Shown: in pieces, positions 12,512-58,203 of the stretch | Layout: every line of letters begins with the position of its first letter | Numbering within the stretch: position 1 is the first letter of the stretch | NCBI GenBank assembly: GCA_023150565.1 | Contig: JAKLKR010000004.1 | Span: 1-64,000, forward strand | Direction: 5' to 3' | DNA length: 64,000 bases | Origin: Planctomycetota bacterium | GTDB taxonomy: Bacteria > Planctomycetota > UBA11346 | Program-made: the position numbers and the translations under genes | The notes under the pieces: generated by a model | What the model saw: the letters and a program-made list of their open reading frames with translations, nothing else | Told to the model about the DNA's origin: nothing | Databases searched by the model: none

Positions 12512-13574
12512 CCTGCGTGCTAACGAGCCGCAGGAACTCACGCGGCCGTCATTTTTCTGCGCGTCCAGCGATGCTTTCTGATCTTGGTCCAGGCCCAGTG
12601 CCTGCTGGCAACCATGGCCGTGAGGAGGCGGTCGGTGATGGTCTGTTCCTGCCCATCGGGCTTGGCGTCGCGATAGCGGTTTCGCCGGTTGGTGCGCCAC
12701 GAGAACTCGGCGGTGTAGAGGTCGAGATGCCGGCGGCAGGTGTTGCGGTGGGTTCCCAGGAGCCAGCTCTTGAGGTTGGAGATCTGGCGATGGACGAGCT
12801 TGAACTGGATGGCGGAGCGCTTGCCGCCCAGGCTGACTTCCGGCCGATGGACGAAGCCCCTCTGTGTCAGCGCCGTATAGCTGCTGAGAGCATCGGTGCG
12901 GATCTGGGCGCCGGGTTGGATCTTGGCGCCAATGACCTTGAGAAGGGATTTGGAGGTGACATCGGCCACTGGGCGCAAGGCAATGTAGCCAGTGAGGTTA
13001 TCGCCCATCTTCTCGACCATCGCCAGCACCGGTGTCTTGTGCTTGGTCGATCGTCCGCGCACTCCAGCCCCGGCCGCAAGCCCGCCGACATAGGCCTCAT
13101 CCACCTCGATCAGGCCGGCCAGGCGGTAGCCCTCGTCCCGCTCCTGCATCGCATGCCGCAGCTTGTGCAACAGATGCCAGGCCGTTGGACCACTGCACCC
13201 CACGTGCTTCGCCAGCGATTTCCCCGAGATCCCCTGCTTGTTGGCCGAGATCAGGTACATCGCCAGGAACACCTTCGGCAGCGGCAGCTTGAAGAAGGCG
13301 AAGGCCGTGCCGCTGGTCACCGACGTTTGGCGCCCGCATCCGATGCACTCGAAACCTCGCCGCCCGGGCAGCGCGTAGCCCCCGGCATGACGACAGTGCG
13401 GGCACACGAACCCCTGCGGCCATCGGCGCTCCCGGATCCGCGCCAGGCAGGCCTCCTGCGTGGCGTGCTGGGCTAGAAAGTCAGGCAGAGAGGCGGATTG
13501 GATCAAGGGGTTCATGATGGGTATATATAGACCCATTCAGCACTTCCGCAACCTGCGGCTCCTTAGCACGCAGG
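12512..13574 (-). mobile_element. IS1595-family insertion sequence, 1063 bp, nested inside the IS1634 transposase gene.
   Basis: Terminal inverted repeats: left CCTGCGTGCTAACGAGCCGCAGG, and the right-end reverse complement CCTGCGTGCTAAGGAGCCGCAGG (24/25 match). It is flanked by a perfect 8-bp direct repeat TAAAGGAT at 12504..12511 and 13575..13582. Removing the element plus one TSD copy restores one continuous IS1634 transposase frame (...MKDKGFNLAEFTEERLAKALDD...). Confidence 0.85.
12538..13515 (-). CDS. IS1595-family transposase (N-terminal zinc ribbon plus DDE).
   Basis: CPHCRHAGGYALPGRRGFECIGCGRQTSVTSGTAF zinc ribbon, IEVDEAYVGG motif, and a DDE region. A TATATATA-like motif lies between Met 13536 and Met 13515, so I chose the downstream Met. 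Confidence 0.8.
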   Translation of the reverse strand: MNPLIQSASLPDFLAQHATQEACLARIRERRWPQGFVCPHCRHAGGYALPGRRGFECIGCGRQTSVTSGTAFAFFKLPLPKVFLAMYLISANKQGISGKSLAKHVGCSGPTAWHLLHKLRHAMQERDEGYRLAGLIEVDEAYVGGLAAGAGVRGRSTKHKTPVLAMVEKMGDNLTGYIALRPVADVTSKSLLKVIGAKIQPGAQIRTDALSSYTALTQRGFVHRPEVSLGGKRSAIQFKLVHRQISNLKSWLLGTHRNTCRRHLDLYTAEFSWRTNRRNRYRDAKPDGQEQTITDRLLTAMVASRHWAWTKIRKHRWTRRKMTAA

Positions 13575-13582
13575 TAAAGGAT

Positions 13583-15105
13583 TCAACCTGGCCGAGTTTA
13601 CCGAGGAGCGCCTAGCGAAAGCACTCGACGACCTCTTTGATGCGGATCTAGACCGACTGATGACCGGCATCGCTTTGCAGGCTGTCGACCAGTTTCGCCT
13701 TGGCACTGACTTCCTGCACTTCGACACCACCTCGCTGAGCTTTTTTGGCGCCTATGAGAGTGAGGGCTTTGGTTCGATGAGCGATGGTTCGAGCAAGCCG
13801 CCATTGGTCACCCATGGCTACTCCAAGGACCACCGGCCAGACCTGAAGCAAATCATGTTCGGGTCGCTAGTCACTCGGGATGGGGGCGTTCCGCTCTATG
13901 GAAAGGCGCTGGACGGGAATCGCTCGGACAGTGAGTCGGCCGCCGAGTTCTTTCAGCGCGTTCGTTCGCTCGTGCGCGATCCCAGGGAGGTCTGCTGTGT
14001 AGCCGACAGTAAGGGGTGGTGTGGTCCAGTCCTGGCACTGGTGCAACGCGAAGGACTACGTCTCTTGTCTCGACTTCCACGGCATCATCGCCTGCACCGC
14101 GAGATCATGGCCGCCTCGTGTTCCTCCATGGAGCGCGTTGAGCGATCTGCGCCAAAGGGCTCAAAGGAGCCAGACTTTTACGAGATTTCCGGGTTCGACG
14201 TCGAGGAAGTGCTGACGATTGAAGTCCCATCGACTAAGCCAGACGGCAAGCCAAGTCGCCAGCAGCTTCACATCCCCGCTCGCGCAGTTCGCGTATTCTC
14301 CTCTGCTCTGTTTCGTCAGAAGTTGGGCACCCTTCAGCGGACCAAGACATCAGAATCAAAGCAGGTTCAGCGACAGATCGCGGAGTGGCACGCGGTGGCC
14401 TATGCCTGCGTCGAAGACGCTGAGCGGGCAGCTAAACGCAATATGGCCGAAGCTGGTTTCACCACTCTCGACTTGGTCGCCACAGTCCATGAAATCGCTG
14501 GACCGTTCCGGCGCGGCCCAGGACGCCCTCGCAAACAACCGGAGCAAGACCTGGAGACCGAGCGGCACTACCGAATCACGTATACCACCGTGTTCGTGCC
14601 CGAGGCGGAGGTCATGGAGCGCCTGCGCCTGTCAGCCACCTTCATCCAGATCCGCACGCGAAACCCGGGGTGGCAGATTGCCGATGCCGAGATGATAGAC
14701 GCGTACAGAAATCAGTATCTATGCGAACATGGCTTTTCCTGGTTGAAATCCGGAAGTGGTCCCAGGGGCCTCAACCCGATTTACCTGGAAACCCCCAAAC
14801 GAATTGCCGCACTCTGCTTTCTTTATCTGATCGGACTCATGGTCTGGACGCTGATCCAACGCACGGTGAGAATGACCTTGGTGAAGTGGAACACAGGACT
14901 CCCGTACCACAGAAATAAGCCAAGTCCAAAGATCACCACGAGATTCTACTTTGAGCTTTTTCCAAAACTCCAGACCGTGACCTACAAACTGCCAGGCGAG
15001 GAGTGGCAGAAGGTGGTCGGGATCAACCCTGTCATAGAATTGGCGCTCAAGGCACTCGGCACACGCGGAGACACGCTTGTCCCGGTCGCTGAAAATACAC
15101 CATAA
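13583..15105 (+). pseudogene. IS1634-family transposase, C-terminal DDE portion, separated from its N-terminus by the IS1595 insertion.
   Basis: ORF-track 13660..15105, extendable in frame back to 13583 immediately after the TSD. Contains LHFDTTSLSFFGAYE and HGYSKDHRPDLKQ, motifs characteristic of IS1634/IS4-type transposases. Confidence 0.75.
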
Positions 15106-15235
15106 TAGTTGCCGCGATCCCAGGAGTATGCGCTATGACCGTCTCGACTGCTGGTTCTGGATATGCCGCCGCAGATGATGATCGGGGCAAAAGAATGGCG
15201 ACGAATATTTGCACAGTAAGCACAGCGCTCTGAAC

Positions 15236-16069
15236 CTAATATATCACCGATCTAACGCTCGGTGATTTTTCCTTAAGTCGCGATTTAAGCCACTCACCAT
15301 CTCCATTTAACCCATCAATGTGGACACAAGATAAACCACGTATTGTTGACAATGCGTCCGCCAGCGCCCCGTCTAATACCACCCTTGATGAAGACAACAC
15401 CAATGTATCCACGGAGGCATTTAGACCACATAGGTGATTATGCACCCAATGATTATCAACGCTAGTCTCCCTAAAATCCAGGGTGTTATACGACAAGGCA
15501 TTTACATCCCTAAAGATGTTGGCCATGCAATCTGTATTCCGACTTTCCTGAAACGACAAACTAAGATTCCGGAGGCCAATAGGAACGTCCAACGAAAACC
15601 CTCTCAAATCCACCCCCATCAGCGCGATTGACTGCATGTCCTTGCTTGCACTGCAATTAAGTCCACCACCCATATTTTTACATCCATCTATCGTTACGCC
15701 AGTCGCCCTCTCACCCGTCACAAGCAACGTGCGACTCTCTGTAAAATAGCACCTTCTCATGGTCAGGCTCCGCAGACCCTTCCAATCATTCATCCCTCTC
15801 AGTGTTTCTCCGTCAATTTCCACATCGGCCATTTCAAAGTATTCTATAGACTGAACCTTCCTGAGACAATCAACAATCCAGCCTCGACCTCCGCCGACAT
15901 CAGCCGCGTTCAACGATCCCAAAGCATTCGCCTTAACGCAAAACTCTACAAAAACATCCTTTGTGAAGGCTGGATTTCGAATTTCCAGTCTCGTCACCCT
16001 TTTATTCATTCGTTGGATATATCGCCTTAACGCCTCGTCATTTGCAGATGGGCCACGTAAGCGCCACAT
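15236..16069 (-). CDS. Leucine-rich-repeat-like protein, the putative cognate immunity protein for the upstream RHS toxin.
   Basis: ATG at 16069 overlaps the RHS stop in a TGATG arrangement. The gene is lower-GC like the RHS C-terminal tip. Cys-containing LRR-like segments are present (LRSLTMRRCYF, LRNLSLSF, LSCVHIDGL). Confidence 0.5.
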   Translation of the reverse strand: MWRLRGPSANDEALRRYIQRMNKRVTRLEIRNPAFTKDVFVEFCVKANALGSLNAADVGGGRGWIVDCLRKVQSIEYFEMADVEIDGETLRGMNDWKGLRSLTMRRCYFTESRTLLVTGERATGVTIDGCKNMGGGLNCSASKDMQSIALMGVDLRGFSLDVPIGLRNLSLSFQESRNTDCMANIFRDVNALSYNTLDFRETSVDNHWVHNHLCGLNASVDTLVLSSSRVVLDGALADALSTIRGLSCVHIDGLNGDGEWLKSRLKEKSPSVRSVIY

Positions 16070-19000
16070 CAGAACGCCCACCTACAAACCGTTTGCAAAG
16101 AGTTTGCAACCGTTTGCTTCTTGTGCGAATCCCTGCATTTCTCCTCGCAACTTGAGTCGCCATAGCAGCTTGACATACAATCCTTCAGCCAGTCATTAAT
16201 CGAATCCTGTTCCTTTGCACCCTGGTCGTATACGTCGTAGACATTTAACACAAACAACGCCTTTCCCGCCACTTTACGAACCACCTTAGTTCCCACCCCG
16301 GCTCCCGCCACGGGCTTAGGGGGCGCATGTTTTCTGCCGTCTATCTTTTTCTTGGAATGCTTGCCTCGTTCGGTTTTCTTATTTGGATTCGACCCTTTTT
16401 TCATTTCATCCATGTGTTTGTCAATTTCAGAATCAGGAATTCCGGCCTTGCGAAGGGATTCACGAATATGCTCTTCCCTCTGCGCATCTGAGAGTCCCTT
16501 CCACTTCTCTAACGCCTTCTCTGGATTCTCTTTGGGCATTCCTTCCTTTCTGAAATAATCATGCACAGCGTCGTGCTGTTCTTTGGTAAGGTCCCACAAA
16601 GGCTGATCGTTTGATCCTCCAAGGTGCAGGGGATATCCATGGTGATCAGGGGCTCCAGTTGGGTCGATCGTCTGGAACATACCAATGCCACCAAGGTACA
16701 TGGTCATTCCATCCACATAGACACCGTCCTTGGACAACATGTCTACATACATTAATTCCACCCCCTCCTCGAATAAATCCACGTATCCCCATCCGGGCCC
16801 AGCCGAATTTTCATTTCGCGAAACATAGGAACCGGCCTTCGAGCTGAAATATCTCGACCTTGCATACAATAACGCAGTTTCCACATCGTAGTAGAACCCC
16901 GTAAATCCACGCCCCAAACCCGCTACAGCAGCCCCTCTCAACGTCCCATCTGGCGCAAGAACGGCCTGCTTTCCATAGGCGTCGTAACGGAAGCGTTCGA
17001 CCACGGTTCCGGCCGCACTGGTCACAGCGGTTGGCGAATAGAGATGGTTGCCGCTGACAAAGGATCGAACCGCACCAACATCAAATGCCAGAACCTCGTC
17101 GATGTAGGTCCCATGCGTGAAGCGCTTCACTATCGATCCGGTGATTTCGACCACAACCCGAGCGCCGTCGTGCACAAAAATGGTTACCGTGCCATCGCCC
17201 AGGGCTTTGCTGATGCGGCGACCCAAGGCGTCGTAAGAATAGCTGCCCAGGATCACGTTGCTGGCGTCCCGCGCCTGGATCAAGCGGTTCTCCACATCCC
17301 AAGTCAGCACAAGGCCATCCTGATCCTGAGCCAGATTTCCCTTCTGGTCGTAGAGCAGTGGCGTGGTCACGCCCGCCGCGGTCAACGAGGTGGTTTCATG
17401 CACATCACTGTGGGTCCGCGTCTCCGTCACGCCGTTGCGCGTGATCGACTGCCAATCGCCCACCAGGCTCAACTGCCAGTTCTGCGACTCCTGCCCATCG
17501 CGCTGCCACGAGGTCAGGCGGCCGGCCGGATCATAACTGAAGGCCTGGTTGCGCTGCGGATCAAGACCATCGTCCTCCGCCGTCTTGCGCTTGGCTGCGT
17601 CGTAACTGTAGGCGAACTGCGCCACGCCGGGGGTTACGATGCCGGCCACGAGATGGTCGTTCGGCACATACGTCCGGGTCTCGGTGAGTCCATTGCCCAG
17701 GGCCGTAGCGACCAGGCGACCCGCATCGTCGTAGCTCCGGTTCGCAACCAATCCGCCGCCGATGGCAACCTGCGCCAACTCCTTGCGGGGGGTGAAGGTG
17801 CGGGCCAGCACGGTGCCGTCCGGGTACGTGACCTCAGTTGGCTGGTTATCGGCGCTATAGGCGTAGCCGACCGTGTAGGTCGTGCCGCCGATCACCTGTT
17901 CCTCACGGGTCAGACGGCCGGCATGCTCGCCGTTGTCGGTGTAGAACCGGCGCACGGTGGAACCATACCGGGCACTCACCGCACTGGTCAGGCGGCCGGT
18001 GGTATCGTAGCCATAGGTGTCGTTCAAGCCGTCCGGGTACTGACGGGCAACCAGACGGTTGGCTGCGTCGTACTGGTAGGTCGTCACCACCCCTGCCTGG
18101 TCGGTGCGGGAGGCCAAACGCCGGCCCGGATCATAGGTGTAGCTGCGGCGGTCCGTGGTACCCGGCGTCTGCTGGCCGGCCGGGAAGGTTTCCTGGGTCA
18201 ACAGACTGCGTGCATCATAGACATAGGTCGTGATCTTGTTCTCGGCGTCGGTGATGCTGAGCAGGTTGCTGTCCTGGTCATAGGCAAACTGCGTGACACC
18301 GCCATTGCGGTCCGTTTCACTGGCCTTGCGGTTGCGCACATCAAAAGCGGTGGTCTGGACCCGGTTGAGTTGGTCCGTCTCGCTAACCACATTCCCCTCC
18401 GCATCATACCCGCGACGGGTCGTGGCACCGGCAGTGTCGGTTCGGCCGATCTCATGATTTCGCAGATCGAACACCGCATCGAACCCGATAGCAAGCGGAT
18501 CGCGATGCGATACCAGATTGCCATCGGCATCGAAGCCACGTGCAGTCACCTTGCCAAGGGCGTCCACCTGCTGGCGGGCGCGGCTTGCACCATCGAGACG
18601 GTGAACCGTGGTCGCTGCCACCGGATCGGTTGCACGAACTTCCACCAGCCCCGACGACACGGTGTCGTAGGCCGTGGTCCATGCGGCCCCATTGCCGTTG
18701 ATGCGACGCAACTCGCGCCCCAACCCGTCAGCGACCTGGACCGTCACCTCACCGGCCGGGTTCGTCGCCACTATGATGAGGCCACCGGCACCACTACCGC
18801 GATTCAAACCAGCAATCCAAGCAGGATTGGCGACTTCCAGGCCCTGTCCATCCACCACGTTCGCCTCATAGGCATACGTAGTGGTCTCGCCGAGGCCATT
18901 GGTTTGGGCAATGACGCGGTTCAAGCCATCGTAGGTGGTGGTCCCAACAATCCCGTTCGCATCCGTTACCGACGTGCTATTGCCGATGAAATCATAGGCA

Positions 19001-21339
19001 AAAGAGGTCTGGTACCCCAGCGGATCGAGGACCTTCACCAAGCGATCGCAGCAGGTGCCATACTGGAAGGTGGTCACATTGCCGCGGAAGTCGCTCTCGG
19101 TGGCCTTCTTGCGACTCAAGGTATAGGTCGTGGTCTTGGTTGCCGTGACAGGGGTCCCCACTGCCACCGATTGGCTCGCCCGCAGATTCCGGCCCGTGTA
19201 GGTATACTCGGTCACCGTCCCACGGGCGTCCGTGGCGCGGATCACATTGTTGGCGCCATCAAAGGCAAAGGTCGTGGTTCCTGCCTCGGGCATGCCCGTG
19301 GCCTCGGTGCGCGCTACGAGACGGCCCCGGCCATCGTAAGCCATGCTTTGTACCGCCCCGCGACCGTTCGTGGCCGTCACCTCCTGGGACTCGGCGTCCA
19401 GGGTCCGATCGGTGATGACATAGTTGGGGTTGGCGGTGAGAATCCGCGCCAATCCATTGAGGAAGGTTTGGCACTGGGTGGGATCGCTGGGAGCCGCCAC
19501 GGTTCCCGGCAGCAGTTCCTGCACCGTCCGCACCGGGCGTTGCAGGCTATCATAAGCCCGCCACGTGCGCCGACCGTAGGGGTCGGTCACCGCTTGGAGA
19601 CGGTTCTTGGTGTCATAGGCGTACTGGGTCAGCAGGGTCGTCGACGCCGAAGCAGCCACCGTCTCCTTGGTGGTGCGACGGCGCGTGTCGTACTGGAAGG
19701 TCGACAGCGTCCCATCCACAGTCTTCGTGTCGACCAGAGTCGTGCCCGGCTGGTAGGTCCAGGCCGTTGAGGCGAGCACGGTGGCGCCGGTCGGAGGTAG
19801 CCTGCGCGTGCTGATGCGTCGTCCCGCCCCGTCATAGCCATGCTCGGTGCGGTTTCCGTTGCGATCAATCTCTACTGCGACCAGGTTGGCGTCGACGCCC
19901 GTCCCGTACACGGTCTGGTCGGTGCTGCCATCGGCATAGGTCTTGGTGGTGAGCCGGTTGCGCGAGTCGTAAGCCAGCTGGGTGGTGACCGTTCCCGTTC
20001 CACCAGGAGCAGTGATCTGGGTCACGCGGCCATTGCCGTCATACCCATACGAGGTCACCGCTCGCGGGCCGCCGGCCTGGTCGGCCGGTTCGGTAACGCT
20101 GGCCAACTGGCCGAGGGCATCGTACGCGAAATCCGTGCGGTTGCCGCGCGGATCGGTTTCCGATGCCCGGCGGGCCACGCCATTCACGGTCGTGTAGGTG
20201 TATGTCCAGGTCGCGGTATCCGCCGTGGTCTCGGTGAGCTGGGTGGTCGAATTCCAGCGCAGGCCGACGGTCTTGGTCAGTTGATTGCCCTGGCTGTCGA
20301 AGGTACCGGCCTCGGCCCGCTTGAGCCGATCCACCGACAAGGTCATGCGCTGATTCTGGTCATAGCGCACCAGGGAGGTCGTGCCGTCCGGGTAGGTGGC
20401 CTGGCTGAGGTGGCCATCGGTCCCATAGGTCACCGTCAATGCCAGACCCTGCGGGCTGACCAGCTTGGACGGGGTCCCTCGGTACCATTCGCGCACAGCG
20501 GAGGCCGCCTTGTACGAGTCCGTGCCGTAGGTGGATTCCCAGTTCGCCTTGACGTGGGCGTAGGTCACCGGCGAGGTCGGGGTCGCCTGTTCGATGTACC
20601 AGGTTTTGGCAAACTGCCGCCGGTGCTCCAGGTCGCCCGGCATGTAGAAGGCATCGTAGTACATCCGCCCGGCACCCTCGTAGATGTACGGGGCCGTTCC
20701 CCAGGGGTGGGGGAAGTTCAGATACGATACCTCGTCGGCGCCATTGACCAGCATGCGCAAGAGCTGGGCCGACTGGGGGAAGACGCTGCCGGTGTCGGCA
20801 ATCCGCGTATAGGTGGTGGTCAGGTAGGCGGTTTTGCGCCGGTGCTCGTCCTTGGCGGCCGGATCGTTGTAGGCGACGGTGATGCATTTGGCGGAGGCCG
20901 AATAGCCGCGCACGAAGGTGGCCTGGTCGCCATTGGCCAGGGTCGCGCCCGCCAGCATGCCGCCGGAATAGGTGTAGGAGACCGACTGGTTGCCGGGGAA
21001 GTCGATCCGCTCCACCGCCCACCGACCCGACTGCTGCTGGCTGCCGTAGACGAAGGTCGCCGAGCGTCCGAAAGCGTCGGTCACCTGATTGATCTGCCAC
21101 AACCGGGCCGGCGAACCGCCGAGGTCATCCGTCGGGGCATACCGGTAGCTGACGGTCATGGCCGAACCGTCGGGTTCCTGGTACTTCACGATGCGACCCA
21201 CCCGGGCCGAACCGATGGTCACGATCTGGAAGGTACGCTGCTCGCCGTCCTTGAGGGTCAGAACCGCGGTAGCGGCCAACGCCTGGTCGGTGGTCAACTG
21301 ACCGCACAGGTGTAGATGCCGTCGAGGACATCCGTGCAC
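16069..21339 (-). CDS. RHS/YD-repeat polymorphic toxin: a large beta-rich repeat shell with a variable Lys-rich C-terminal tip.
   Basis: Dozens of YD-repeat units (YDALGRRISK, YDANGNLV, RYDAYGKQ, YDSRNRLTT...), an RHS-core-like segment (...RYF...QTIDPTGAPDHHGY), then about 190 low-GC, lysine-rich C-terminal residues at 16069..16700. No signal peptide at the annotated Met; see the frameshift finding. Confidence 0.85.
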   Translation of the reverse strand: MHGCPRRHLHLCGQLTTDQALAATAVLTLKDGEQRTFQIVTIGSARVGRIVKYQEPDGSAMTVSYRYAPTDDLGGSPARLWQINQVTDAFGRSATFVYGSQQQSGRWAVERIDFPGNQSVSYTYSGGMLAGATLANGDQATFVRGYSASAKCITVAYNDPAAKDEHRRKTAYLTTTYTRIADTGSVFPQSAQLLRMLVNGADEVSYLNFPHPWGTAPYIYEGAGRMYYDAFYMPGDLEHRRQFAKTWYIEQATPTSPVTYAHVKANWESTYGTDSYKAASAVREWYRGTPSKLVSPQGLALTVTYGTDGHLSQATYPDGTTSLVRYDQNQRMTLSVDRLKRAEAGTFDSQGNQLTKTVGLRWNSTTQLTETTADTATWTYTYTTVNGVARRASETDPRGNRTDFAYDALGQLASVTEPADQAGGPRAVTSYGYDGNGRVTQITAPGGTGTVTTQLAYDSRNRLTTKTYADGSTDQTVYGTGVDANLVAVEIDRNGNRTEHGYDGAGRRISTRRLPPTGATVLASTAWTYQPGTTLVDTKTVDGTLSTFQYDTRRRTTKETVAASASTTLLTQYAYDTKNRLQAVTDPYGRRTWRAYDSLQRPVRTVQELLPGTVAAPSDPTQCQTFLNGLARILTANPNYVITDRTLDAESQEVTATNGRGAVQSMAYDGRGRLVARTEATGMPEAGTTTFAFDGANNVIRATDARGTVTEYTYTGRNLRASQSVAVGTPVTATKTTTYTLSRKKATESDFRGNVTTFQYGTCCDRLVKVLDPLGYQTSFAYDFIGNSTSVTDANGIVGTTTYDGLNRVIAQTNGLGETTTYAYEANVVDGQGLEVANPAWIAGLNRGSGAGGLIIVATNPAGEVTVQVADGLGRELRRINGNGAAWTTAYDTVSSGLVEVRATDPVAATTVHRLDGASRARQQVDALGKVTARGFDADGNLVSHRDPLAIGFDAVFDLRNHEIGRTDTAGATTRRGYDAEGNVVSETDQLNRVQTTAFDVRNRKASETDRNGGVTQFAYDQDSNLLSITDAENKITTYVYDARSLLTQETFPAGQQTPGTTDRRSYTYDPGRRLASRTDQAGVVTTYQYDAANRLVARQYPDGLNDTYGYDTTGRLTSAVSARYGSTVRRFYTDNGEHAGRLTREEQVIGGTTYTVGYAYSADNQPTEVTYPDGTVLARTFTPRKELAQVAIGGGLVANRSYDDAGRLVATALGNGLTETRTYVPNDHLVAGIVTPGVAQFAYSYDAAKRKTAEDDGLDPQRNQAFSYDPAGRLTSWQRDGQESQNWQLSLVGDWQSITRNGVTETRTHSDVHETTSLTAAGVTTPLLYDQKGNLAQDQDGLVLTWDVENRLIQARDASNVILGSYSYDALGRRISKALGDGTVTIFVHDGARVVVEITGSIVKRFTHGTYIDEVLAFDVGAVRSFVSGNHLYSPTAVTSAAGTVVERFRYDAYGKQAVLAPDGTLRGAAVAGLGRGFTGFYYDVETALLYARSRYFSSKAGSYVSRNENSAGPGWGYVDLFEEGVELMYVDMLSKDGVYVDGMTMYLGGIGMFQTIDPTGAPDHHGYPLHLGGSNDQPLWDLTKEQHDAVHDYFRKEGMPKENPEKALEKWKGLSDAQREEHIRESLRKAGIPDSEIDKHMDEMKKGSNPNKKTERGKHSKKKIDGRKHAPPKPVAGAGVGTKVVRKVAGKALFVLNVYDVYDQGAKEQDSINDWLKDCMSSCYGDSSCEEKCRDSHKKQTVANSLQTVCRWAF

Positions 21340-21923
21340 CCCCAGGGGTTCGACCAGGACCCGTCGGTGAACTTGCGGCTGTTGAGCGCCAGCGGATCGA
21401 AGTACTCGATGTGCCGCTCGCCGGCGGCGTCCACCGTCAGGTACAACTTGGTGTCGAAGGTCTGGAAAACGCCCGGGCCATAACTGCTGTCTACGGTCAT
21501 GTCGCGGTAGCGATGCACGCGATGAAGCGCGAGGCTGGGCAGGGCATTACGCTGGCGCAACTGGCCCAAGGCATGCTCCGACACGCACGACGCACACCCG
21601 CCCAGGGTGGTGTCCAACCGGTAGTCATCAGCAAAATGAAGGTGATTCAGTGACAAGTTGTCAATCAACGAGCCACTGCTGCATTCAGTGGTGCTATCAG
21701 ACCATTTACTCAACACACTGCCATCTGCCTTGCATATGACACCAGACTCTATTGTCGTGGTGGTGCAGGTTTTGCTGTGCGTGACGTTATCACATACTGT
21801 CGTTACTGTATTGGAGGTGACATTTTCCCCAAGTACCTTCGTAACCGTTTGGCCTCCCTCAGCCGCGGCAAGAGACCCCATTGCAATCAATGATGCAACA
21901 CCAAGGCGAGTTGACATGGACAT
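21294..21923 (-). CDS. Sec-signal, Cys/Thr-rich secreted ORF, probably the true N-terminus of the RHS toxin, separated from it by a single frameshift or stop.
   Basis: Signal peptide MSMSTRLGVASLIAMGSLAAA. The ORF ends ...DGIYTCAVS* while the RHS frame begins immediately at the overlapping MHGCPRR...GQLTTDQ. The two ORFs overlap by 46 nt in different frames. The N-terminal part is low-GC. Confidence 0.55.
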   Translation of the reverse strand: MSMSTRLGVASLIAMGSLAAAEGGQTVTKVLGENVTSNTVTTVCDNVTHSKTCTTTTIESGVICKADGSVLSKWSDSTTECSSGSLIDNLSLNHLHFADDYRLDTTLGGCASCVSEHALGQLRQRNALPSLALHRVHRYRDMTVDSSYGPGVFQTFDTKLYLTVDAAGERHIEYFDPLALNSRKFTDGSWSNPWGCTDVLDGIYTCAVS

Positions 21924-21962
21924 GTGGATGGTCCTTTGGGTATGCGAATGCAGGTAGGATGA

Positions 21963-22790
21963 TCAGGGGGTCGCGGTTGCTGCCGGCACTCCGGCTGCAG
22001 CCACGGGTAGTGGAGTGATGGGATGGCCGGGAACGGTGAGAGTGAAGCGCACCTGGCCGCTCGCCATCGGGCTGCCGGCCAGGATGTTCACCTGTCCCGA
22101 CACGCCCGGGGTGGCAGTGAAGGTCACCAAGGCCACGCCATCGCGGTCAGCCGCCACCGTGATGGACGGCAGCTTGTTGTCGAAGGACCCCAAGTCGAAG
22201 GAGGTCCACGAAACAGCGGCCCCAGGAATCGCCTTCACGCGCAGGGAGGTCGACTCACCGCGCGCCACCGTTGCGGCGGTCGGCCCCTCAGCCACGAGGA
22301 TGGGGGCCGTCGGAGATGGCTGCGCCGTTTGGAAGACCCGACCCGGTTCGGTAACTGCCAGATACCCCGACGGGTTGGTATTCCACGCAACCTGGTCAAA
22401 GGCTGCCGGAGCAATCATCGGCGAGAGGCGTTCAGGGTGTTGATCGGACTGCGCGGCGTCAGCAACGGACTTGACCTGCGGGTTGGCGTCGGCCTTGACC
22501 GGCTGGGTCGTCCACGGCTTGGTGATATCCGTATCGGCCGTTTGGGCCGCATCTGCGCCTGCCGCCTGGGCCAGCGCAGCGGGGGCCTTATTGGCCGCCG
22601 GAGTGCCTACCGCCGGAGCCTGCGATGCCATTGGTGAGGGAGAAGACGTGTTTTTCGCTGAGTCCACGCCGGTCGGCGACGGGGATCGCAGGGCAAACAC
22701 GGCAATCGCGATGACCGCGATGGCAACTGCTAGGGCAATGAGGGGGCGAGTCACGGGGCGGAGTCTTACTTTTCCCCCGTAGTCGGTCAA
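21963..22790 (-). CDS. Membrane-anchored periplasmic hypothetical protein, between gspM and the RHS gene.
   Basis: N-terminal TM helix RPLIALAVAIAVIAIAVFAL, then an Ala/Pro/Thr-rich linker and a beta-rich C-terminal domain. Same strand and close spacing as the gsp genes. Confidence 0.45.
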   Translation of the reverse strand: MTDYGGKVRLRPVTRPLIALAVAIAVIAIAVFALRSPSPTGVDSAKNTSSPSPMASQAPAVGTPAANKAPAALAQAAGADAAQTADTDITKPWTTQPVKADANPQVKSVADAAQSDQHPERLSPMIAPAAFDQVAWNTNPSGYLAVTEPGRVFQTAQPSPTAPILVAEGPTAATVARGESTSLRVKAIPGAAVSWTSFDLGSFDNKLPSITVAADRDGVALVTFTATPGVSGQVNILAGSPMASGQVRFTLTVPGHPITPLPVAAAGVPAATATP

Positions 22791-22845
22791 GTGATGATCT
22801 CTTCATCAATTACGTCGAACCTTCATGCCAAACGATGACCGCATC

Positions 22846-23352
22846 TCACTCATATGAGGTGGCCGCCATCAGCACCGTCGCTTCAAAGCGGTTGCCCTGG
22901 CCGACAATCCTGGCCACGTCCAGCCCGATCACCTGCCAGGCCGGGTTCTGCCCCTGCCAGGACCCCAACCACCCGCCTAAGTCAGCCGGCGACAGCCCAC
23001 GCAGCTGCACTTGGGCGCTCACCCGTCGGACACCCCCGGTACCGCCCGGCTCGCTGCGCGGGGTGATGCCTTGGCAGGCGGTGGGGGGAACCCCCGCCGC
23101 TGCTAAACTCTGGTGCACCCGTGCGACCAGGTCGGCATCCGGCCGTGCGCCCGTCACCGCCACCCCCTGCTGACGTAGCTCGGCGAGACGATCAATCTGG
23201 CGCTGCTGGATTGAAGCCTCTCCGCGCGCCGTCTCCAGCGCGTCCGCAGCCGACCCCCAGCGCCACCAGGCCCACAGCAGCACCAGCCAGAAAGCCACAG
23301 TCCATGCCACTGCCGGCATCAGCCAGGGACGAGTTGAAGACGTGAACATCAT
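22846..23352 (-). CDS. gspM: T2SS GspM / PilO-like inner-membrane protein.
   Basis: About 160 aa, a single N-terminal TM helix (AVAWTVAFWLVLLWAWW), then a coiled-coil. Its position follows the gspL-like gene with a 4-nt overlap. Confidence 0.45.
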   Translation of the reverse strand: MMFTSSTRPWLMPAVAWTVAFWLVLLWAWWRWGSAADALETARGEASIQQRQIDRLAELRQQGVAVTGARPDADLVARVHQSLAAAGVPPTACQGITPRSEPGGTGGVRRVSAQVQLRGLSPADLGGWLGSWQGQNPAWQVIGLDVARIVGQGNRFEATVLMAATSYE

Positions 23353-24215
23353 CGCCCACCTCCAGCGGCAGCCCGCTCGGGGACTAGGGCGATGACAAAC
23401 GCTGCCTGGGCATCCTGCTGCTGCACCTGCAACGGCTCACAGCGCCAGCCCGCAGGCGGAGCACCTGCCAGCGCAGCGCGGAGCCGGTCAGCCTCCGCCA
23501 TGCCGGGCGCCCGGCCACGGATGACGATGCGTTCACCGGTGGCGGTGAGTGCCAACACCTGAATGCGCAGGTCACGGGGCCATGACCGCCAGAGCTGATC
23601 TACCACCGGAACTACGGCTGGTGCGGTGGAGCGTCCTGCCCCGGCCGCCTGTTCCAGGCGACGGGTCTCCGCCAGCAGGCGCAGTTCCGGGTGGAGGTCC
23701 TGGGGTGGCGCCTGCACTGCCGCCACCACCGCCCGCCGGGTCTGGATACGCAGGGCCTCGGCGGCATGAGCGGCTGCGCGAGCACGTCGCTCAACCCCGA
23801 CCACCACCAACAACAGGATCAGGGCACAGGCCCCATGAATGATCCAGGCCCGTCGCTGACGCCAGGTGCGCCGCACCGCCGGCTCGAACGGGCCAACCAG
23901 CAGGTTCAGCCGCTGGCACAGGTCGGCGGGTACCGCCGGCTCGTCCCGCAGCGGGGCAGGCAAGCCATCCGGCACCAACGTCCAATGCTGGGACCCCAGA
24001 TCCCCGCGCCCAGCCAGGTAGGCTTGGAATCGCTCCGGTTCGATCCCCACCACCACCACCCGACCATCCGGCAGGGGGGTGGCGACATGGTGCAATCGCT
24101 CCACCGGCAGCGGCAGCACCCGCTCCCAGCGAAAAGAGACCGACATGCGCCGCCCAGGCATCGGCGCCACCAGACCCCAATACAGCTCCTCGGCCGGAAT
24201 CGTGGCGCCGGTCAT
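23349..24215 (-). CDS. gspL: T2SS GspL-like protein (cytoplasmic domain, TM helix, periplasmic domain).
   Basis: About 290 aa with a central TM helix AWIIHGACALILLLVVVGV. Its position in the operon lies between the gspK-proximal gene and the gspM-like gene. Confidence 0.45.
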   Translation of the reverse strand: MTGATIPAEELYWGLVAPMPGRRMSVSFRWERVLPLPVERLHHVATPLPDGRVVVVGIEPERFQAYLAGRGDLGSQHWTLVPDGLPAPLRDEPAVPADLCQRLNLLVGPFEPAVRRTWRQRRAWIIHGACALILLLVVVGVERRARAAAHAAEALRIQTRRAVVAAVQAPPQDLHPELRLLAETRRLEQAAGAGRSTAPAVVPVVDQLWRSWPRDLRIQVLALTATGERIVIRGRAPGMAEADRLRAALAGAPPAGWRCEPLQVQQQDAQAAFVIALVPERAAAGGGR

Positions 24216-24670
24216 CGAGCCAACTCCAGGCGCTGCTCGCCCTGATCACCCCGCACCGTCACACCCTGGGCGTCGACGGCCACCACCTGCCAACGACCGC
24301 CGGCCAGACTGGCGCCAGCAGTCACCAGGGTCAGTCCACTGCCATCCCCAGGGTCGATGGCTGCCTGCCAGGTTTCGCCCCGGCGCAGGATCGAGAGCAG
24401 CACGGGCTTCACCATGGTAGAAGCCGCCTGACCGCCCTCGCCGGGAGCCAGGTCCACCGCCCAATGCAGGGGCGAGATGGTCGCGGCAGGGTTGGGCGCA
24501 GACGCCAGCGGGCGCACCGTCTGCTCAGGGCCCACGAACGCCGGCAGGGGAAGGAAGGCCCACACACCGACGGCCGCCACCACCACCCCGAGCGCCAGGG
24601 CGCACCCCAGCACCTGGGCGCGCACCGCGCGTTCAGGGGGCGCGCTCATCGGCACGCGGTGGGCAGTCAT
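24212..24670 (-). CDS. Membrane-anchored periplasmic protein, possibly GspC/PilP-like.
   Basis: N-terminal TM helix VLGCALALGVVVAAVGVWAFL. A small periplasmic domain. Located between gspK and gspL. Confidence 0.35.
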   Translation of the reverse strand: MTAHRVPMSAPPERAVRAQVLGCALALGVVVAAVGVWAFLPLPAFVGPEQTVRPLASAPNPAATISPLHWAVDLAPGEGGQAASTMVKPVLLSILRRGETWQAAIDPGDGSGLTLVTAGASLAGGRWQVVAVDAQGVTVRGDQGEQRLELAR

Positions 24671-25544
24671 GGCGCTGCACGATGCGACATGCCCCCGGAT
24701 TGCCAGCCATCACCACCCACCAGGCACGGGCACGACCGTCGACCCAGGCATCCACCCGGATGCACCAGCGATCCGACGTGGCCACCCACACCAGGGGACC
24801 CCCTGCGGACGATGGCGCCGCGCTGACCTGCCCTTGCTGGCGATGGGCCAGCACCTCGGCCACCGCGATGCCCGGGATGACGTGGGCCGCGGAGCGCAGG
24901 AGAGCCTCGGGAGCGGTGTTGAGATTGATGCGCCCATCGGAATGCGCGGCGAGCACCAGCGCCAGCGCCGGCGGGGGATCGCTCACGCCCAGGGGTGGCG
25001 GACCATCCCCGGCGAGAGACGGCAGGCCGATCTCACGGCAGGTCACCCAGGACGGCAGGGCGCTGGCCGGCACTGCCGGAAAGCGGGTCCACCCCCCGGG
25101 TACCGGCAGCCGTTCCAGCCAGTCCGAAGTCGAACCGGTCAACGGGGGCGGATCCTCGGAGATGGCCGCCGCCAGTGGACCCGGCACCTGATCGCGCAGG
25201 GCGCCGGTCGGGCCAGCACAGGACGGTGGGATGCCCGCCAGGCCATCGAACACCGTCACCACCAGGGCCGCCTGGCCCCCCGCTGTCACCCAGCGATCCG
25301 CGCACACCACCGTGCCACCGCCTGCCGGTGGCAGCACTAGGCGTTGGCCGTGCTGGGCCAGCCACCGCTGGGCCAGCCGTTCCCCCAGGTCGCGGAGGGC
25401 ATGCAGGCGGGCGTCCTCGTCGGCGGCGGCACCATGGGCGGTCGCGCTGCCGATAGCCACCACCCCGGTGGTGATGGCCGCGAGCACCACCACCACCGCC
25501 GCCAGGGCGATGAGCAGGGCCACGCCCGCGCGCGAACGCGTCAC
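24633..25544 (-). CDS. gspK: T2SS minor pseudopilin GspK.
   Basis: Hydrophobic N-terminal segment AGVALLIALAAVVVVLAAI and the GspK hallmark INLNTAPEALL. I chose the GTG start at 25544, overlapping the gspJ stop. The ORF-track 5' extension to 25718 is an implausible Gly/Pro/Arg-rich segment. Confidence 0.65.
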   Translation of the reverse strand: MTRSRAGVALLIALAAVVVVLAAITTGVVAIGSATAHGAAADEDARLHALRDLGERLAQRWLAQHGQRLVLPPAGGGTVVCADRWVTAGGQAALVVTVFDGLAGIPPSCAGPTGALRDQVPGPLAAAISEDPPPLTGSTSDWLERLPVPGGWTRFPAVPASALPSWVTCREIGLPSLAGDGPPPLGVSDPPPALALVLAAHSDGRINLNTAPEALLRSAAHVIPGIAVAEVLAHRQQGQVSAAPSSAGGPLVWVATSDRWCIRVDAWVDGRARAWWVVMAGNPGACRIVQRHDCPPRADERAP

Positions 25545-26032
25545 GGCTCGGCCCCGATGAGAAAACGCCAGGGTTCTCCGGTGGGCTGATCGCTGAGGGT
25601 GAGCCACCAGCGTTGCTGACCATCCTGGGTGACCTGGACCTGGGCACACCAGCGCGCCACCAGGGTGGGCTGGGCACCGACCACCCCGCGCCACAGGGCC
25701 CGGTCGGCCGCAACCCACACCCAGCGCACGGCATGGGCACCGGCCGGGTCACCCGGGGTCGGCTGCAGGGTGGTGTAGTGCAGCAGCAGGTCGGGAGTCG
25801 GGGTGACGCGCTTGCCCTGGGAGTTGGGAACCGACGCGGCCAGGTCGTCGCGCAGACTGCGGGCGATCTGCACCGCGGCGGCGAACGCCTGCAGACGCGC
25901 CTCGGTGGTACGCGCCGCGCGCACCTCGGTAGCGGTCCAGGCGAAGAGCCCGACGGCGAGGAGGCCCAGCACGCTGATGGCGGCGACCACTTCGATCAGG
26001 GTCATGCCGGATCGCGGCACGCGGCACCGCAT
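25541..26032 (-). CDS. gspJ: T2SS minor pseudopilin GspJ-like.
   Basis: Prepilin-type N-terminus: leader MRCRVPRSG, then MTLIEVVAAISVLGLLAV. Overlaps the gspI stop by 1 nt. Confidence 0.6.
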   Translation of the reverse strand: MRCRVPRSGMTLIEVVAAISVLGLLAVGLFAWTATEVRAARTTEARLQAFAAAVQIARSLRDDLAASVPNSQGKRVTPTPDLLLHYTTLQPTPGDPAGAHAVRWVWVAADRALWRGVVGAQPTLVARWCAQVQVTQDGQQRWWLTLSDQPTGEPWRFLIGAEP

Positions 26033-26406
26033 CAGGGCAGCCCTGGTTCGGGCAGGAGATGGATGTGTTCCGCTACCCGGCGGGCGGTGGGATCAGCCCC
26101 CGTCGCCACCACCACCAGGGCATACCGCCGCGGTGGACTGCCCGCAGCCAGCGGCCCATCGGCGTCCACGGCAAAGGCCTGCACCCACCAGCCCAGATGG
26201 CCGTCGATGGGTTCGTTGACCGGCAAGGGGCGCGCGGTGACGGTTGCCACATGCTGGTCGAGCCAGGCGCGGGCCGCCACCCGTTCCTCGGCGCCACCGC
26301 TGCGCCGATGCAGGCGCATGGTCCAGGGCACCACCACCGCGGCCACCAGCCCCACCACCACCGCCGCGGCGAGGACCTCCAGCAGCGAGAAGCCGCGGGT
26401 GGTCAT
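26032..26406 (-). CDS. gspI: T2SS minor pseudopilin GspI-like.
   Basis: MTTRGFSLLEVLAAAVVVGLVAAVVV prepilin N-terminus, about 124 aa. Confidence 0.6.
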   Translation of the reverse strand: MTTRGFSLLEVLAAAVVVGLVAAVVVPWTMRLHRRSGGAEERVAARAWLDQHVATVTARPLPVNEPIDGHLGWWVQAFAVDADGPLAAGSPPRRYALVVVATGADPTARRVAEHIHLLPEPGLP

Positions 26407-26828
26407 TCCGCCACCCAGGTGCCAGCAATGCCCTGGACCTGCCAGGCGCTGACCCCGGCGGCGGTGGTCAGGGTCAGGCGCAGATCCTGGTGCCGCCCAT
26501 GGGCATCAATGGCTAGGCGGTCGATGGGTTGGCCCCGGGCGTCCTGCCAGGAACAGCTGGCCTCGGGAAGTCTGCCATCGGCCACGGCGGTCGGGGTGCG
26601 TGGCCAGGTCAGGCCCTGCGCCACCAGGTCCACGGTCAGGCCACGACCCACCGCCGCCAATCGGGCTTCATCTAGGCAGCGGGCCAGCTCCGGAGCAGCC
26701 GTACCGGTGCGGGCCCGCAGCAGGCTGGGAGCGACGACGGCGGCGACCAAGCCCAGCAGGACCACCACCGCCAGCACCTCGACCAGGGTCATGGCGGTTC
26801 GGCGCGACAGGGATGCGCGGGACGGCAT
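26403..26828 (-). CDS. gspH: T2SS pseudopilin GspH-like.
   Basis: AMTLVEVLAVVVLLGLVAAVV prepilin-type helix. I chose Met MPSRASLSRRTA at 26828, about 5 nt after the gspD stop. The ORF-track start at 27014 is probably too far upstream. Confidence 0.55.
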   Translation of the reverse strand: MPSRASLSRRTAMTLVEVLAVVVLLGLVAAVVAPSLLRARTGTAAPELARCLDEARLAAVGRGLTVDLVAQGLTWPRTPTAVADGRLPEASCSWQDARGQPIDRLAIDAHGRHQDLRLTLTTAAGVSAWQVQGIAGTWVAE

Positions 26829-26832
26829 CGGC

Positions 26833-35823: not shown

Positions 35824-37587
35824 TTACGGAGCCTGTTTGCCAGCCACTCCACGGCGCCGAGCATACTGGGTGGGCGTCAGTTCAGCTGGTGACCGCCGCT
35901 CGTAGTGCAGGTCGTCGATGATGTCGTTGAGGTAGGCGACGGGGTCGAGGCGGTGGAGGAGCGCGGTCTGGGTGACGGTGAGCAGGGTGGCGTAGCCTGT
36001 GGCCCCGGCCTCCGAGGCGCTGAAGAGGCTGTTCTTGCGGTGGAGGGCAATCGGTCGGATGGCCCGTTCCGTCTGGTTATTGTCTATGGGGGCTTGGCCG
36101 ATGGTCGGATAGCGCTCCAGTCCCGGCCAGAGCTTGCGCGCGTAGCTCACCGCCATGGCGATGCCCGACTTGGGCAGGATGCGCGGCTCGATGGCCCAGG
36201 CGTCGAGGGTGGCCTTGATCTCGGCCAGGATCGGCTTGGCCTGGGCGCTGCGGGCGAAGACGCGCTCGGCCGGGGTCGCAGCGCGCAGGCCCGCCTCAAT
36301 GCCGTAGAGCTTCCCGATCAGGTCGAGCATGATCGGCCGGCGGGCCTTGTCCTCGGATTCGTGGAACTTCCGTCGGACATGGGCCCAGCAGAAGAGCGGC
36401 ACCACCGCTGGGGTCGCCAGCAGCCGGCCGTGGCCGGCATAGGCGTCGCCCATTACCGCCCCATGGAAACCGTCCAGAAGGTCGGTGATCCACTTCCCCT
36501 CGCGGGTGGGGCTGAAGAGGTAGTAGCTGCCGACCGGGGCAGTCACCGCCCAGAGCCGGGCCTGCTGGCAGACCCGGCGGTCATCGACCTGGAGGCGGTG
36601 CACGGTGTCGTCGATGCCGACCACCGGGCAGGCGGTGATCTCGTCGAAGATGGCTGCTGCCACGTCGCCCAGGAAATCCGCCAGGGCGATATGCCAGCGG
36701 CAGAGCTTGGCGCGCGGGATCAGCGCCCCCAGGCGGGCGGCGCGCTGCTCCTGCCGGTGCGCAGGCAGATGGTCCACCACCTTGTCGACCGCCGACTGCA
36801 CCAGCAGGTCGTCGCTGACCTGGCCGCGCTCGATCACCGAGGGTGGGGTCAAGGTCTGCTGGGTGGTGATGCCGCCCTTCAACTGCAGGCGGACCACCGG
36901 GCAGGTCAGAACCTCGATGTGGAGGTCCATCTTGCCCACCGACCAGCGCTCGATGGTGGTGGTGCCGGCCGGGGTGACACCGAGCGCGTGTCGCAGGAAG
37001 GGGTGGTTGGCCGGCGGGACATAGGTGCTGTGCCGACGCTCGATGTCGGCGGGGAGCGGGTTGCGGCCACCGGCGTTGGCCGGGCGCTGCCGGGTGCGGC
37101 CGGCGGGCTTGTCCGCCGGGGTCGCGGCGTCGGACGAGAGCGGCTTCTCGGTCTCGGTCGCCGGGGTCAGGGCGGCGATCTGCTCGCCCGAGGAGGCCAG
37201 GTCCGGCTCCAGGTTCTCGAACGCGGACAGCACCTCCTGGATATAGCCCTGGTCGGCGCAGGCCCGCTCGCTCACCGCACCGTACTCCCGGCGCAGCAGC
37301 CGGCGCATGCGCTCATCGCCGTTCTGGATGGCGACCAGCAAGCCCGACACCTGCTGTTTCAGATCCGCGTGCTGCCGGCGCAACTCGGCCAGTTCTAGGC
37401 GCAGCGCATCGCGCTCGGCACGGGCCTCGTCGCGCTCGCGCCGGGCCTCGTCGCGCTCGCGCCTGGCCTCGTCGCGCTCGGCGCGCAGCACATCCTTCTC
37501 CGCCTGCAGGCGTTCGACGGCGGCACGCAGCTGCCCGATCTCGGCCGCCTGCCGCAGGATCAGCGCTTCCATCTGGTCAGGGGTCAT
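35824..37587 (-). CDS. tnpC: IS66 transposase TnpC.
   Basis: N-terminal coiled coil with an ERDEARR x3 repeat and a Zn-finger region. DDE region GDAYAGY...CWAHVRRKF and IDNNQTERAIRPIALHRKNSLF. I chose ATG 37587. Confidence 0.85.
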   Translation of the reverse strand: MTPDQMEALILRQAAEIGQLRAAVERLQAEKDVLRAERDEARRERDEARRERDEARAERDALRLELAELRRQHADLKQQVSGLLVAIQNGDERMRRLLRREYGAVSERACADQGYIQEVLSAFENLEPDLASSGEQIAALTPATETEKPLSSDAATPADKPAGRTRQRPANAGGRNPLPADIERRHSTYVPPANHPFLRHALGVTPAGTTTIERWSVGKMDLHIEVLTCPVVRLQLKGGITTQQTLTPPSVIERGQVSDDLLVQSAVDKVVDHLPAHRQEQRAARLGALIPRAKLCRWHIALADFLGDVAAAIFDEITACPVVGIDDTVHRLQVDDRRVCQQARLWAVTAPVGSYYLFSPTREGKWITDLLDGFHGAVMGDAYAGHGRLLATPAVVPLFCWAHVRRKFHESEDKARRPIMLDLIGKLYGIEAGLRAATPAERVFARSAQAKPILAEIKATLDAWAIEPRILPKSGIAMAVSYARKLWPGLERYPTIGQAPIDNNQTERAIRPIALHRKNSLFSASEAGATGYATLLTVTQTALLHRLDPVAYLNDIIDDLHYERRSPAELTPTQYARRRGVAGKQAP

Positions 37588-37603
37588 CGCGGGCACGTCG
37601 ACA

Positions 37604-51042: not shown

Positions 51043-51503
51043 GGAGTCGTTTATGGGTCTATAATAACCCATTCCAGCGACATTCTTGCACTCGCCGGAT
51101 GTTAACGGATTACATACTGTCACATCATAGCTTGCGTCGATATTATCACTCCCGTCGACTCCCAATCCAGGTCGACTCAGGCCAAGGACTTCTGCTGCCA
51201 GTCGGCGTCGTTGACCATCCGACGCGCCGGCCGGGAGACGGAGAAAAGCCTGCGACCAGCATCCGATAGGGTACGGTATCGTGGTCTCCGCCTGGCGTGG
51301 GCTAACGCCCATCTGCAGCCAAGGGGTGCGTGATCTCGACCCACATGCACTCCGCCTGAGGGGCATCGGCAACCCGCACTCGCAGGATAAAGTGCAGCCG
51401 GACCAGATCGCCGATCCGCTGCGAAGCACGTTCGGAGAGGGCAGGGATGAAGAAGGTGTCCGGGTTCTCCCGGACACAGCGTTCGACATCCTCAAGATCC
51501 CGG

Positions 51504-58189: not shown

Positions 58190-58203
58190 CGGGATATCCT
58201 TGG

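Follow-up and report, generated by a model that had tools for sequence, protein, structure and literature searches.

How can an RHS/YD-repeat protein whose reading frame starts without an export signal belong to a secreted toxin, and what would such a toxin carry at its C-terminal end? This question is raised by a locus in a metagenome-assembled genome (MAG) of a Planctomycetota bacterium (GenBank assembly GCA_023150565.1, contig JAKLKR010000004.1), of which positions 1 to 64,000 of the forward strand were analyzed and are referred to here as the window. The RHS open reading frame (ORF) lies on the minus strand at 16069..21339 and encodes 1756 aa from a GTG start; its 5' end is overlapped by ORF209, which encodes 209 aa from an ATG start (21294..21923, minus). 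According to our analyses, the locus likely represents an RHS (YD-shell) polymorphic toxin module of the Sec-signal type, in which the RHS gene is broken as assembled. The module would consist of three parts, namely a membrane-anchored accessory gene, a single RHS gene encoding about 1965 aa and a translationally coupled downstream gene. Systems of this kind are known: an RHS polymorphic toxin that has a signal peptide and carries its tip on a cassette is coupled to a candidate immunity gene. Undescribed in the RHS family are its own N-terminal region, the conserved accessory gene and the frequent type II secretion neighbors.

Profile searches of the 1756-aa ORF detected RHS repeats in 11 stretches with PF05593 (E=1.8e-76) and also with TIGR01643 (E=1.9e-56), which upholds the assignment to the RHS polymorphic toxins made in a preliminary description of this DNA; the three ORFs on which that description was based (16069..21339, 21294..21923 and 15236..16081, all minus) are present in the window. 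For the Rhs_assc_core profile (TIGR03696), the match was weak: residues 1452-1509 scored 20.7 bits, short of the 32.5-bit cut-off, and align by eye with the core ends of homologues. RHS_repeat was the sole family detected on the protein and its homologues, and no match to PAAR, VgrG or prePAAR was found in the RHS protein. An export signal of its own is lacking in the RHS ORF. Relatives were collected by an exhaustive phmmer search with the conceptually fused N-terminus, which returned 337 proteins, 79 of them at E<=1e-30. A word-indexed homologue search with the same query gave no match. Look-ups of exact products came back empty for ORF209, the RHS ORF and P0012 as well as for the accessory gene in one start variant, and the N-terminal region of the RHS protein has no relative in PDB or Pfam.

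ORF209 starts with MSMSTRLGVASLIAMGSLAAA/E, continues with a low-GC, Thr/Cys-rich stretch and contains the first ~130 residues of the conserved N-terminal region. What the preliminary description called a textbook Sec signal peptide is indeed a Sec-like start, judged by inspection alone. The end of ORF209 (...YTCAVS*) falls within the first RHS codons, as had been described, giving an overlap of 46 nt (21294..21339) and requiring a shift of -1 to pass from one frame to the other. The coding signal, measured as GC content at third codon positions (GC3) by frame, moves from the ORF209 frame to the RHS frame at approximately 21330. Homologues aligned with the fused protein in single stretches across the junction (query position ~208), covering residues 76-501 for P0003, 43-501 for P0004 and 12-495 for P0005; many of the homologues spanning the junction comprise about 2000 aa. 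Colinearity of the fused protein with P0004, P0005 and P0008 extends over about 1600-1850 residues. Because of these uninterrupted alignments and this colinearity, ORF209 and the RHS ORF appear to be two pieces of one gene, with ORF209 as the 5' piece, and the proposal of a split N-terminus is borne out. The closest homologue, P0003 (1307 aa, from an ENA contig), has an Arg/Pro/Ala-rich tail that resembles out-of-frame translation, and may itself be frameshifted or truncated. The signal peptide of the rejoined protein would carry it over the inner membrane. As the sequence stands, ORF209 alone would yield a secreted stub of 209 aa, and the 1756-aa remainder would be left without an export signal, so that this allele would be unable to deliver a toxin.

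The nature of the lesion can be narrowed down by comparison with the homologues. In all 47 aligned homologues, 19-22 residues separate the conserved motifs DG[IV]Y and [LIV]T.DQ, and this segment contains a conserved L.L.D..G; in the closest homologues there are 19 residues ahead of [LIV], corresponding to 57 nt. In the window, the junction between the codons for DGIY and LTTDQ consists of 14 nt (21298..21311, minus) plus TTG, and the frame shared with homologues is valid from about 21306 downstream. The difference of 43 nt equals 14 codons plus 1 base and matches the observed frame change exactly. Because all 47 homologues carry ~14 additional conserved residues at this position, the lesion is most simply read from the alignment as an out-of-frame gap of ~43 nt that would have deleted a conserved segment, and not as a 1-nt indel.

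Over an assembly fault, we prefer a real deletion allele, alongside which the sampled population probably also contains an intact one. Two Logan contigs of SRR17665571 match the window at 100%, L004 over 13008..19481 and L009 over 21305..23625, and L009, which comes from an independent assembly, breaks off at 21305 in the middle of the junction. Such an end would be expected from a branch in the assembly graph, for example between deleted and intact alleles, and would fit a faulty join in the MAG as well. For the Logan contig that would continue on the RHS side, 10 partial products were guessed and none was found in the records, so that this contig was not recovered. Two points count against our preference. 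The NCBI entry MCK6486954.1 ('MAG: hypothetical protein L6R48_01210 [Planctomycetes bacterium]') is a 107-aa piece of ORF209 with the same stop, and apparently derives from the same MAG record, so that it provides no independent evidence for the stop. Furthermore, a real deletion and an assembly fault are inseparable from assembled sequence without reads.

The strongest competing explanation is that the RHS gene of the organism is intact and that the MAG contig was joined over a graph branch or gap, thereby dropping ~43 nt. We consider this the less probable course of events, albeit one that deserves serious attention: the source is a metagenome-assembled genome, L009 stops inside the junction with a perfectly matching flank, and the rest of the 1756-codon ORF contains no further lesion and is colinear with homologues. 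On the other hand, De Bruijn assemblers output only k-mers that are present in the reads, so that reads spanning the junction probably exist, a loss of 43 nt is atypical of Illumina or homopolymer errors, and the branch at the junction is equally consistent with two coexisting alleles. No RHS paralogue that might explain a chimeric join was found in the window. Very improbable is the single-base indel of the preliminary description, whether due to sequencing or mutation, that would split an otherwise complete gene: it is arithmetically true that a 1-nt change within 21298..21311 reopens the frame and fuses the ORFs, but the repaired protein would still lack the ~14-residue segment with L.L.D..G that occurs in 47 of 47 homologues. 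A programmed -1 ribosomal frameshift, or a natural arrangement of two genes for a secreted N-terminal protein and a separate RHS protein, would agree with the 46-nt overlap and the required shift of -1, but is the least credible explanation because inspection of 21294..21339 revealed no slippery heptamer of the type X XXY YYZ and all homologues examined are single ORFs, and the RHS ORF on its own has no export signal. Being either misassembled or dead, the RHS copy in the window is of limited direct value. Beyond this locus, it calls for caution with apparent 'frameshifts' in MAGs, which may mask larger gaps at branch points of the assembly.

At the other end of the RHS protein, the YD shell would enclose the C-terminal tip, which would be released at the DPTG core end. 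In homologues, the shell ends with the pattern …GRF.SRDP.GY.DG..LY….DP.G, and in the core-end alignment the window protein reads …GSYVSRNENS, followed by an insert of ~35 aa and then YVDGMTMYLGGIGMFQTIDPTGA. The motif DPTGA (16651..16665, minus; RHS residues 1559-1563) corresponds to the DPxG[LWF] autocleavage site of RHS proteins. In the window protein, the Asp of the upstream RDP, which from Tc/Rhs structures we take to be the first catalytic Asp, is replaced by Asn (SRNENS), and the residue following DPTG is Ala instead of Leu, Trp or Phe. Both substitutions speak against a canonical core end, and tip release may therefore differ from that of canonical Rhs proteins. The usual C-terminal cleavage motif has been given as DPxG[LWF], optionally extended to PxxxxDPxG[LWF] (bioRxiv 10.1101/2024.02.26.582050); neither the Pro at position -5 of the extended motif nor the pair of catalytic Asp was found in the window protein. 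The SRN variant (16666..16900, minus; RHS residues ~1480-1558) is common to P0005 (SRNAFE) and P0104 (SRNQYG). Three YVD motifs ahead of DPTGA were considered as recombination scars and rejected as such, as P0005 and other homologues share the insert architecture.

The tip following DPTGA comprises ~195 residues, of which ~1565-1756 would represent the toxin. It begins with a candidate toxin module of 95 aa (16363..16647, minus), which contains DHHGYPLHLGG...TKEQHDAVH... and then helices, and ends with a tail (16072..16362, minus) composed of a Lys-rich linker and two predicted helices with the pattern C-x3-C-x5-C-x3-C. No match to the tip was found in Pfam or PHROG, even at E<=10, and none to PDB sequences. 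Among 5.8 billion clustered proteins, its sole relative is P0001, with 48% identity over 95 aa (E=3.5e-19), and scans of GTDB genomes and JGI (Joint Genome Institute) metagenomes yielded no further copies, the P0001 locus alone being recovered. P0001 begins at an RHS core end (RDPLGYVDG…DVYGL), and its locus (L001, 496..3766) is a classical array of orphan cassettes: the core-end fragment with the DHH tip is followed by a 101-aa ORF, which belongs to no family, and then by a second RHS C-terminal fragment with a different tip of 400 aa. Given that its sole relative stands behind an RHS core end within such a cassette, the shared 95-aa domain can be regarded, by context, as a genuine polymorphic-toxin tip. 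The window protein thus shows the arrangement by which RHS toxins are recognized, with a variable tip after the core that is shared with an orphan cassette and followed by a small coupled gene. With two known copies in several billion proteins, the domain would be a very rare and unclassified toxin.

What this toxin may do can be approached from its conserved residues. The start of the domain, DHHGYPLHLGG-x-DQ-x-L-x2-L[TS]KEQHDA.H, resembles the HNH motif of colicin E9, HHDKPISQGG…TTPKRHIDIH (checked against 1bxi_B). H1566, H1567, H1589 and H1593 are invariant in both known tips, and the HH pair aligns to H102/H103 of colicin E9. A weak alignment of HHGYPLHLGG with the catalytic HHDKPISQGG was obtained with BLASTP as well as with hhalign. 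The residue pattern also fits the Tox-ColE7 ('HH, H, H') and Tox-GHH2 ('s[AGP]HH, HxxxH') patterns (PMC3482391). The tip might thus be a minimal His-Me/HNH nuclease with a basic tail; we regard this as a lead and not as a result, tentatively putting its chances a little under even. Several observations weigh against it. The pairwise E-values are 0.075-0.095 over 10-11 residues and the hhalign probability is 0.75%; no Pfam HNH match and no significant profile match to any HNH family in Pfam, PHROG or PDB was obtained; and an AlphaFold model of the tip from the two sequences has a mean pLDDT (predicted local distance difference test) of 55, in which H-x3-H lies in a predicted helix and the hairpin/motif region stays below 50. 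The tail helices of this model reach pLDDT values of 58-74, the linker stays under 50, and Foldseek returned no match for the model. Of a beta-beta-alpha-metal fold, the helix carrying H-x3-H is thus predicted, and the hairpin region is modeled at low confidence. The claim that the tip matches no toxin fold thus holds for Pfam, PHROG, PDB and Foldseek, but an HNH-like DHH motif is located just upstream of the stretch that had been quoted; the HMM and structure predictions proposed at the time gave no profile match and the low-confidence model with its helical H-x3-H.

The alternative, to which we assign a nearly even prospect, is a tip that is not HNH and acts instead as another enzyme, for example an HDxxH metal-dependent hydrolase, or as a non-enzymatic, membrane-active or nucleic-acid-binding toxin in which the helical domain is combined with the basic linker and the Cys-rich hairpin. 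In its favor, the HNH assignment is without profile or fold support, the confidently modeled part is all-helical, H-D-A-V-H also looks like a degenerate zincin motif, and the hydrophobic, Cys-rich tail is partly conserved in P0001. Against it, DHH-x2-P-x3-GG and T-x3-H-x3-H are invariant and have the order and spacing of the colicin E9 motif, and a basic tail suits nucleic-acid binding.

Directly behind the tip lies the candidate immunity gene (15236..16069, minus; listed as an ORF from 16081 with its ATG at 16069), which encodes 277 aa without a signal peptide. The overlap of the RHS stop and the downstream ATG as TGATG, pointed out earlier, was confirmed at 16067..16071. The product was recovered only as itself, in Logan contigs, and has no Pfam match even at E<=10. 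It shows no hydrophobic periodicity of 22-28 residues, and leucine-rich repeat (LRR) core patterns number 7, compared with 4.9±2.0 in shuffled sequences. A single-sequence AlphaFold model (best of five; pLDDT 70, predicted template modeling score 0.61) consists of alternating short strands and helices that form a curved beta/alpha solenoid, and its Foldseek matches include ribonuclease inhibitor. The downstream product is therefore predicted to be an LRR solenoid, so that the earlier label 'LRR-like' receives support from predicted structure but is not visible in the sequence by Pfam, periodicity or patterns. The preliminary description had taken an LRR fold to be exceptional among such immunity proteins; however, LRR, HEAT, ankyrin and TPR repeat proteins have been listed as immunity proteins, with 'LRR-repeats' appearing in Table 3 of Zhang et al. 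2012 (PMC3482391). A repeat protein in the immunity position also occurs within the same RHS family, where a TPR protein follows P0004 (locus L006, 16759..17364; TPR_2, E=1.3e-9). This TPR gene begins at the RHS stop, and a second accessory-like gene and an ORF of 1371 aa come next.

In the producer cell, the cytoplasmic LRR-fold protein would bind and block the tip, and the absence of a signal peptide from the 277-aa protein agrees with a role in shielding the cell from a cytoplasmically acting toxin. Against this role stand the facts that the LRR model derives from one sequence, with the best of five models alone being confident, and that the two homologous tips are followed by unrelated genes. 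We infer the toxin-immunity pairing from position only, because the 101-aa neighbor of P0001 is unrelated to the 277-aa product.

Base composition sets the 3' end of the locus apart. GC content is 0.67 in the window, 0.64 in the RHS body (GC3 0.78), 0.49 at the RHS 3' end and 0.47 in the downstream gene. The drop of GC3 from 0.78 to 0.55 occurs around RHS codons 1390-1460, ~100-170 codons ahead of the DPTGA core end, and the low GC persists from there across the entire downstream gene, delimiting a cassette (15236..17170, minus; GC about 0.47-0.50) that comprises the last ~300-360 RHS codons and the downstream gene. At the 5' end, codons 1-100 of ORF209 have a GC3 of 0.43-0.60. Both low-GC ends that had been described are real, but the 3' block is larger than claimed, starting near codons 1390-1460. 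Tip and downstream gene are supported as a compositionally foreign cassette, in line with the proposed swap of the toxin module at the 3' end. This cassette was probably gained through recombination within the terminal part of the shell region, and two insertion sequence (IS) elements lie alongside it. The transposase genes concerned flank the 3' end of the cassette on different strands (12538..15105): one belongs to the IS1595 family (12538..13536, minus) and the other to the IS1634 family (13660..15105, plus). The IS1634 copy may be truncated, as its match begins at profile position 119 of 483, and the end of the Logan contig L004, at 13008, falls within the IS1595 gene. Together with an IS66-family transposase gene and two rve-integrase genes farther along the window (35824..37632, 38883..40358 and 41340..42956, all minus), the IS pair makes the region rich in mobile elements.

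Upstream of the RHS gene, on the side of the ORF209 start, the accessory gene (21963..22790, minus) is separated from it by 39 nt. In the accessory protein, which matches no Pfam family, a membrane anchor at the N-terminus is followed by a low-complexity linker and then by a conserved C-terminal domain of ~160 aa. This domain shares 50-51% identity (E 1e-51 and 4e-48) with the products of genes directly upstream of RHS homologues at the loci L006 and L008. Conservation of the neighborhood was assessed in 23 other genomes or samples, obtained from a GTDB scan with the N-terminal region (30 loci, nearly all from Planctomycetota MAGs) and from three metagenome loci. By tblastn, the accessory gene lies directly upstream of the RHS gene in 17 of these 23; in the relatives, it often overlaps the RHS start by 4 nt.

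Beyond the accessory gene, a gap of 55 nt leads to a type II secretion-like operon (22846..29073, minus) whose products include a secretin carrying the N0 domain of GspD, a pair of N-methyl pseudopilins and a weakly GspL-like protein. No terminator-like site was found between the operon and the accessory gene, promoter and terminator scans performing no better than on shuffled sequences. The same secretion cluster includes the divergent genes for GspE, GspF and GspG (31299..34553, plus; T2SSE E=3e-118, T2SSF E=2e-42, T2SSG E=1.9e-24). At least one GspD/E/F/G homologue was present within the available upstream sequence of up to 10 kb in 10 of the 23 genomes or samples as a raw count; secretion genes were seen near RHS relatives at L010, L014, L017, L018, L024 and L035-L039. 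At L014, GspF, GspE, T2SSK and a secretin with N0 domain make up a cluster that looks complete and divergently adjoins the accessory-RHS pair, and at L038 a secretin lies upstream on the same strand. No type II secretion genes were found near L006 and L008, and in one Rubripirellula genome one of ten RHS paralogues has secretion genes nearby. Adjacency of RHS and type II secretion genes is thus frequent and not obligatory.

In the literature, we found no report of a type II secretion-like adjacency for RHS toxins. The conjunction of RHS, accessory and type II secretion genes across Planctomycetota offers a testable hypothesis for how signal-peptide RHS toxins could cross the outer membrane of diderms without a type VI secretion system (T6SS); culturable Pirellula or Rubripirellula would be suitable for such tests. 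A more far-reaching reading, which we judge unlikely when taken as a whole, starts from an RHS family with its own N-terminal region of ~430 aa and a membrane-anchored protein as its obligatory partner. A type II secretion-like machine dedicated to this family may export it from the diderm cell independently of a T6SS; the tip of the window protein would found a new and extremely rare toxin family, of minimal His-Me nuclease type or with a fold of its own, and an LRR solenoid would neutralize it in the style of ribonuclease inhibitor.

Some further genes of the window and its relatives deserve mention. At the far end of the window's secretion cluster, a 437-aa protein with weak CXXCH/cytochrome c7 matches is encoded at 34480..35793 (plus), and its homologues (47-51% identity) lie divergently beside the accessory-RHS pair at L006/L007 and L030 (L006 7800..9026, L030 7394..8530). 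Two Pirellulaceae-type loci, L038 (6298..8586) and L024 (2406..4361), contain a large PMT_2-like gene (ArnT-type glycosyltransferase) that separates the secretion genes from the accessory-RHS pair or lies alongside them. The region 47893..62007 (minus) encodes a DnaE-like polymerase, followed by SWIM, VWA (CoxE-like), DUF5682, AAA_5 (MoxR-like) and DUF4132 genes, and is unrelated to the RHS locus.

Among known systems, the locus is close in layout to the Sec-dependent ('T2SS', type II secretion system, class) RHS toxins, for which Planctomycetes have been named among the hosts (Zhang, de Souza, Anantharaman, Iyer & Aravind 2012, PMC3482391). It shares with them the signal peptide, the RHS repeats, the variable tip, the adjacent immunity gene and the orphan cassettes. 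However, that catalogue gives no signature neighbors, whereas an accessory gene and, in ~40% of genomes, type II secretion genes accompany the RHS gene here, and the tip of the window protein matches none of the listed Pfam toxin families. With T6SS Rhs effectors (such as Tre23-Rhs, RhsA and RhsP) and the TcB-TcC cocoons of Tc toxins, it has in common a YD shell that would enclose a C-terminal toxin and its release at DPxG. In contrast to these, the window protein has a signal peptide and no PAAR, VgrG or prePAAR, its neighbors are type II secretion and transposase genes, and its core end reads SRN…DPTGA with the ~35-aa insert in place of RDP…DPxG[LWF].

The candidate tip and its presumed antagonist can likewise be compared with known proteins. 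The DNases colicin E7/E9 and the Tox-GHH2/Tox-ColE7 domains contain HH-x2-P-x3-GG … T-x3-H-x3-H with similar spacing, but in colicin E7/E9 the motif is found at the end of a ~130-aa domain and in the window protein at the very start of the tip; there is also no significant sequence, profile or fold match, and the conserved Asn is not evident in P0001. A cytoplasmic LRR solenoid, here predicted, that is placed to neutralize a secreted toxin recalls ribonuclease inhibitor and RNase A, although the 277-aa protein has no sequence similarity to LRR families and the LRR immunity proteins in Table 3 of PMC3482391 are encoded beside type V secretion system (T5SS) toxins and not beside RHS toxins. Finally, giant genes beside type II secretion-like loci have been described in Omnitrophota (bioRxiv 10.1101/2023.11.21.568195). 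As in our locus, a very large secreted protein of the Planctomycetes-Verrucomicrobia-Chlamydiae (PVC) group is encoded there beside gspD/E/F homologues, but the two cases belong to different phyla, and the cargo of the Omnitrophota systems is adhesive or glycan-degrading, whereas the cargo in Planctomycetota would be an RHS toxin.

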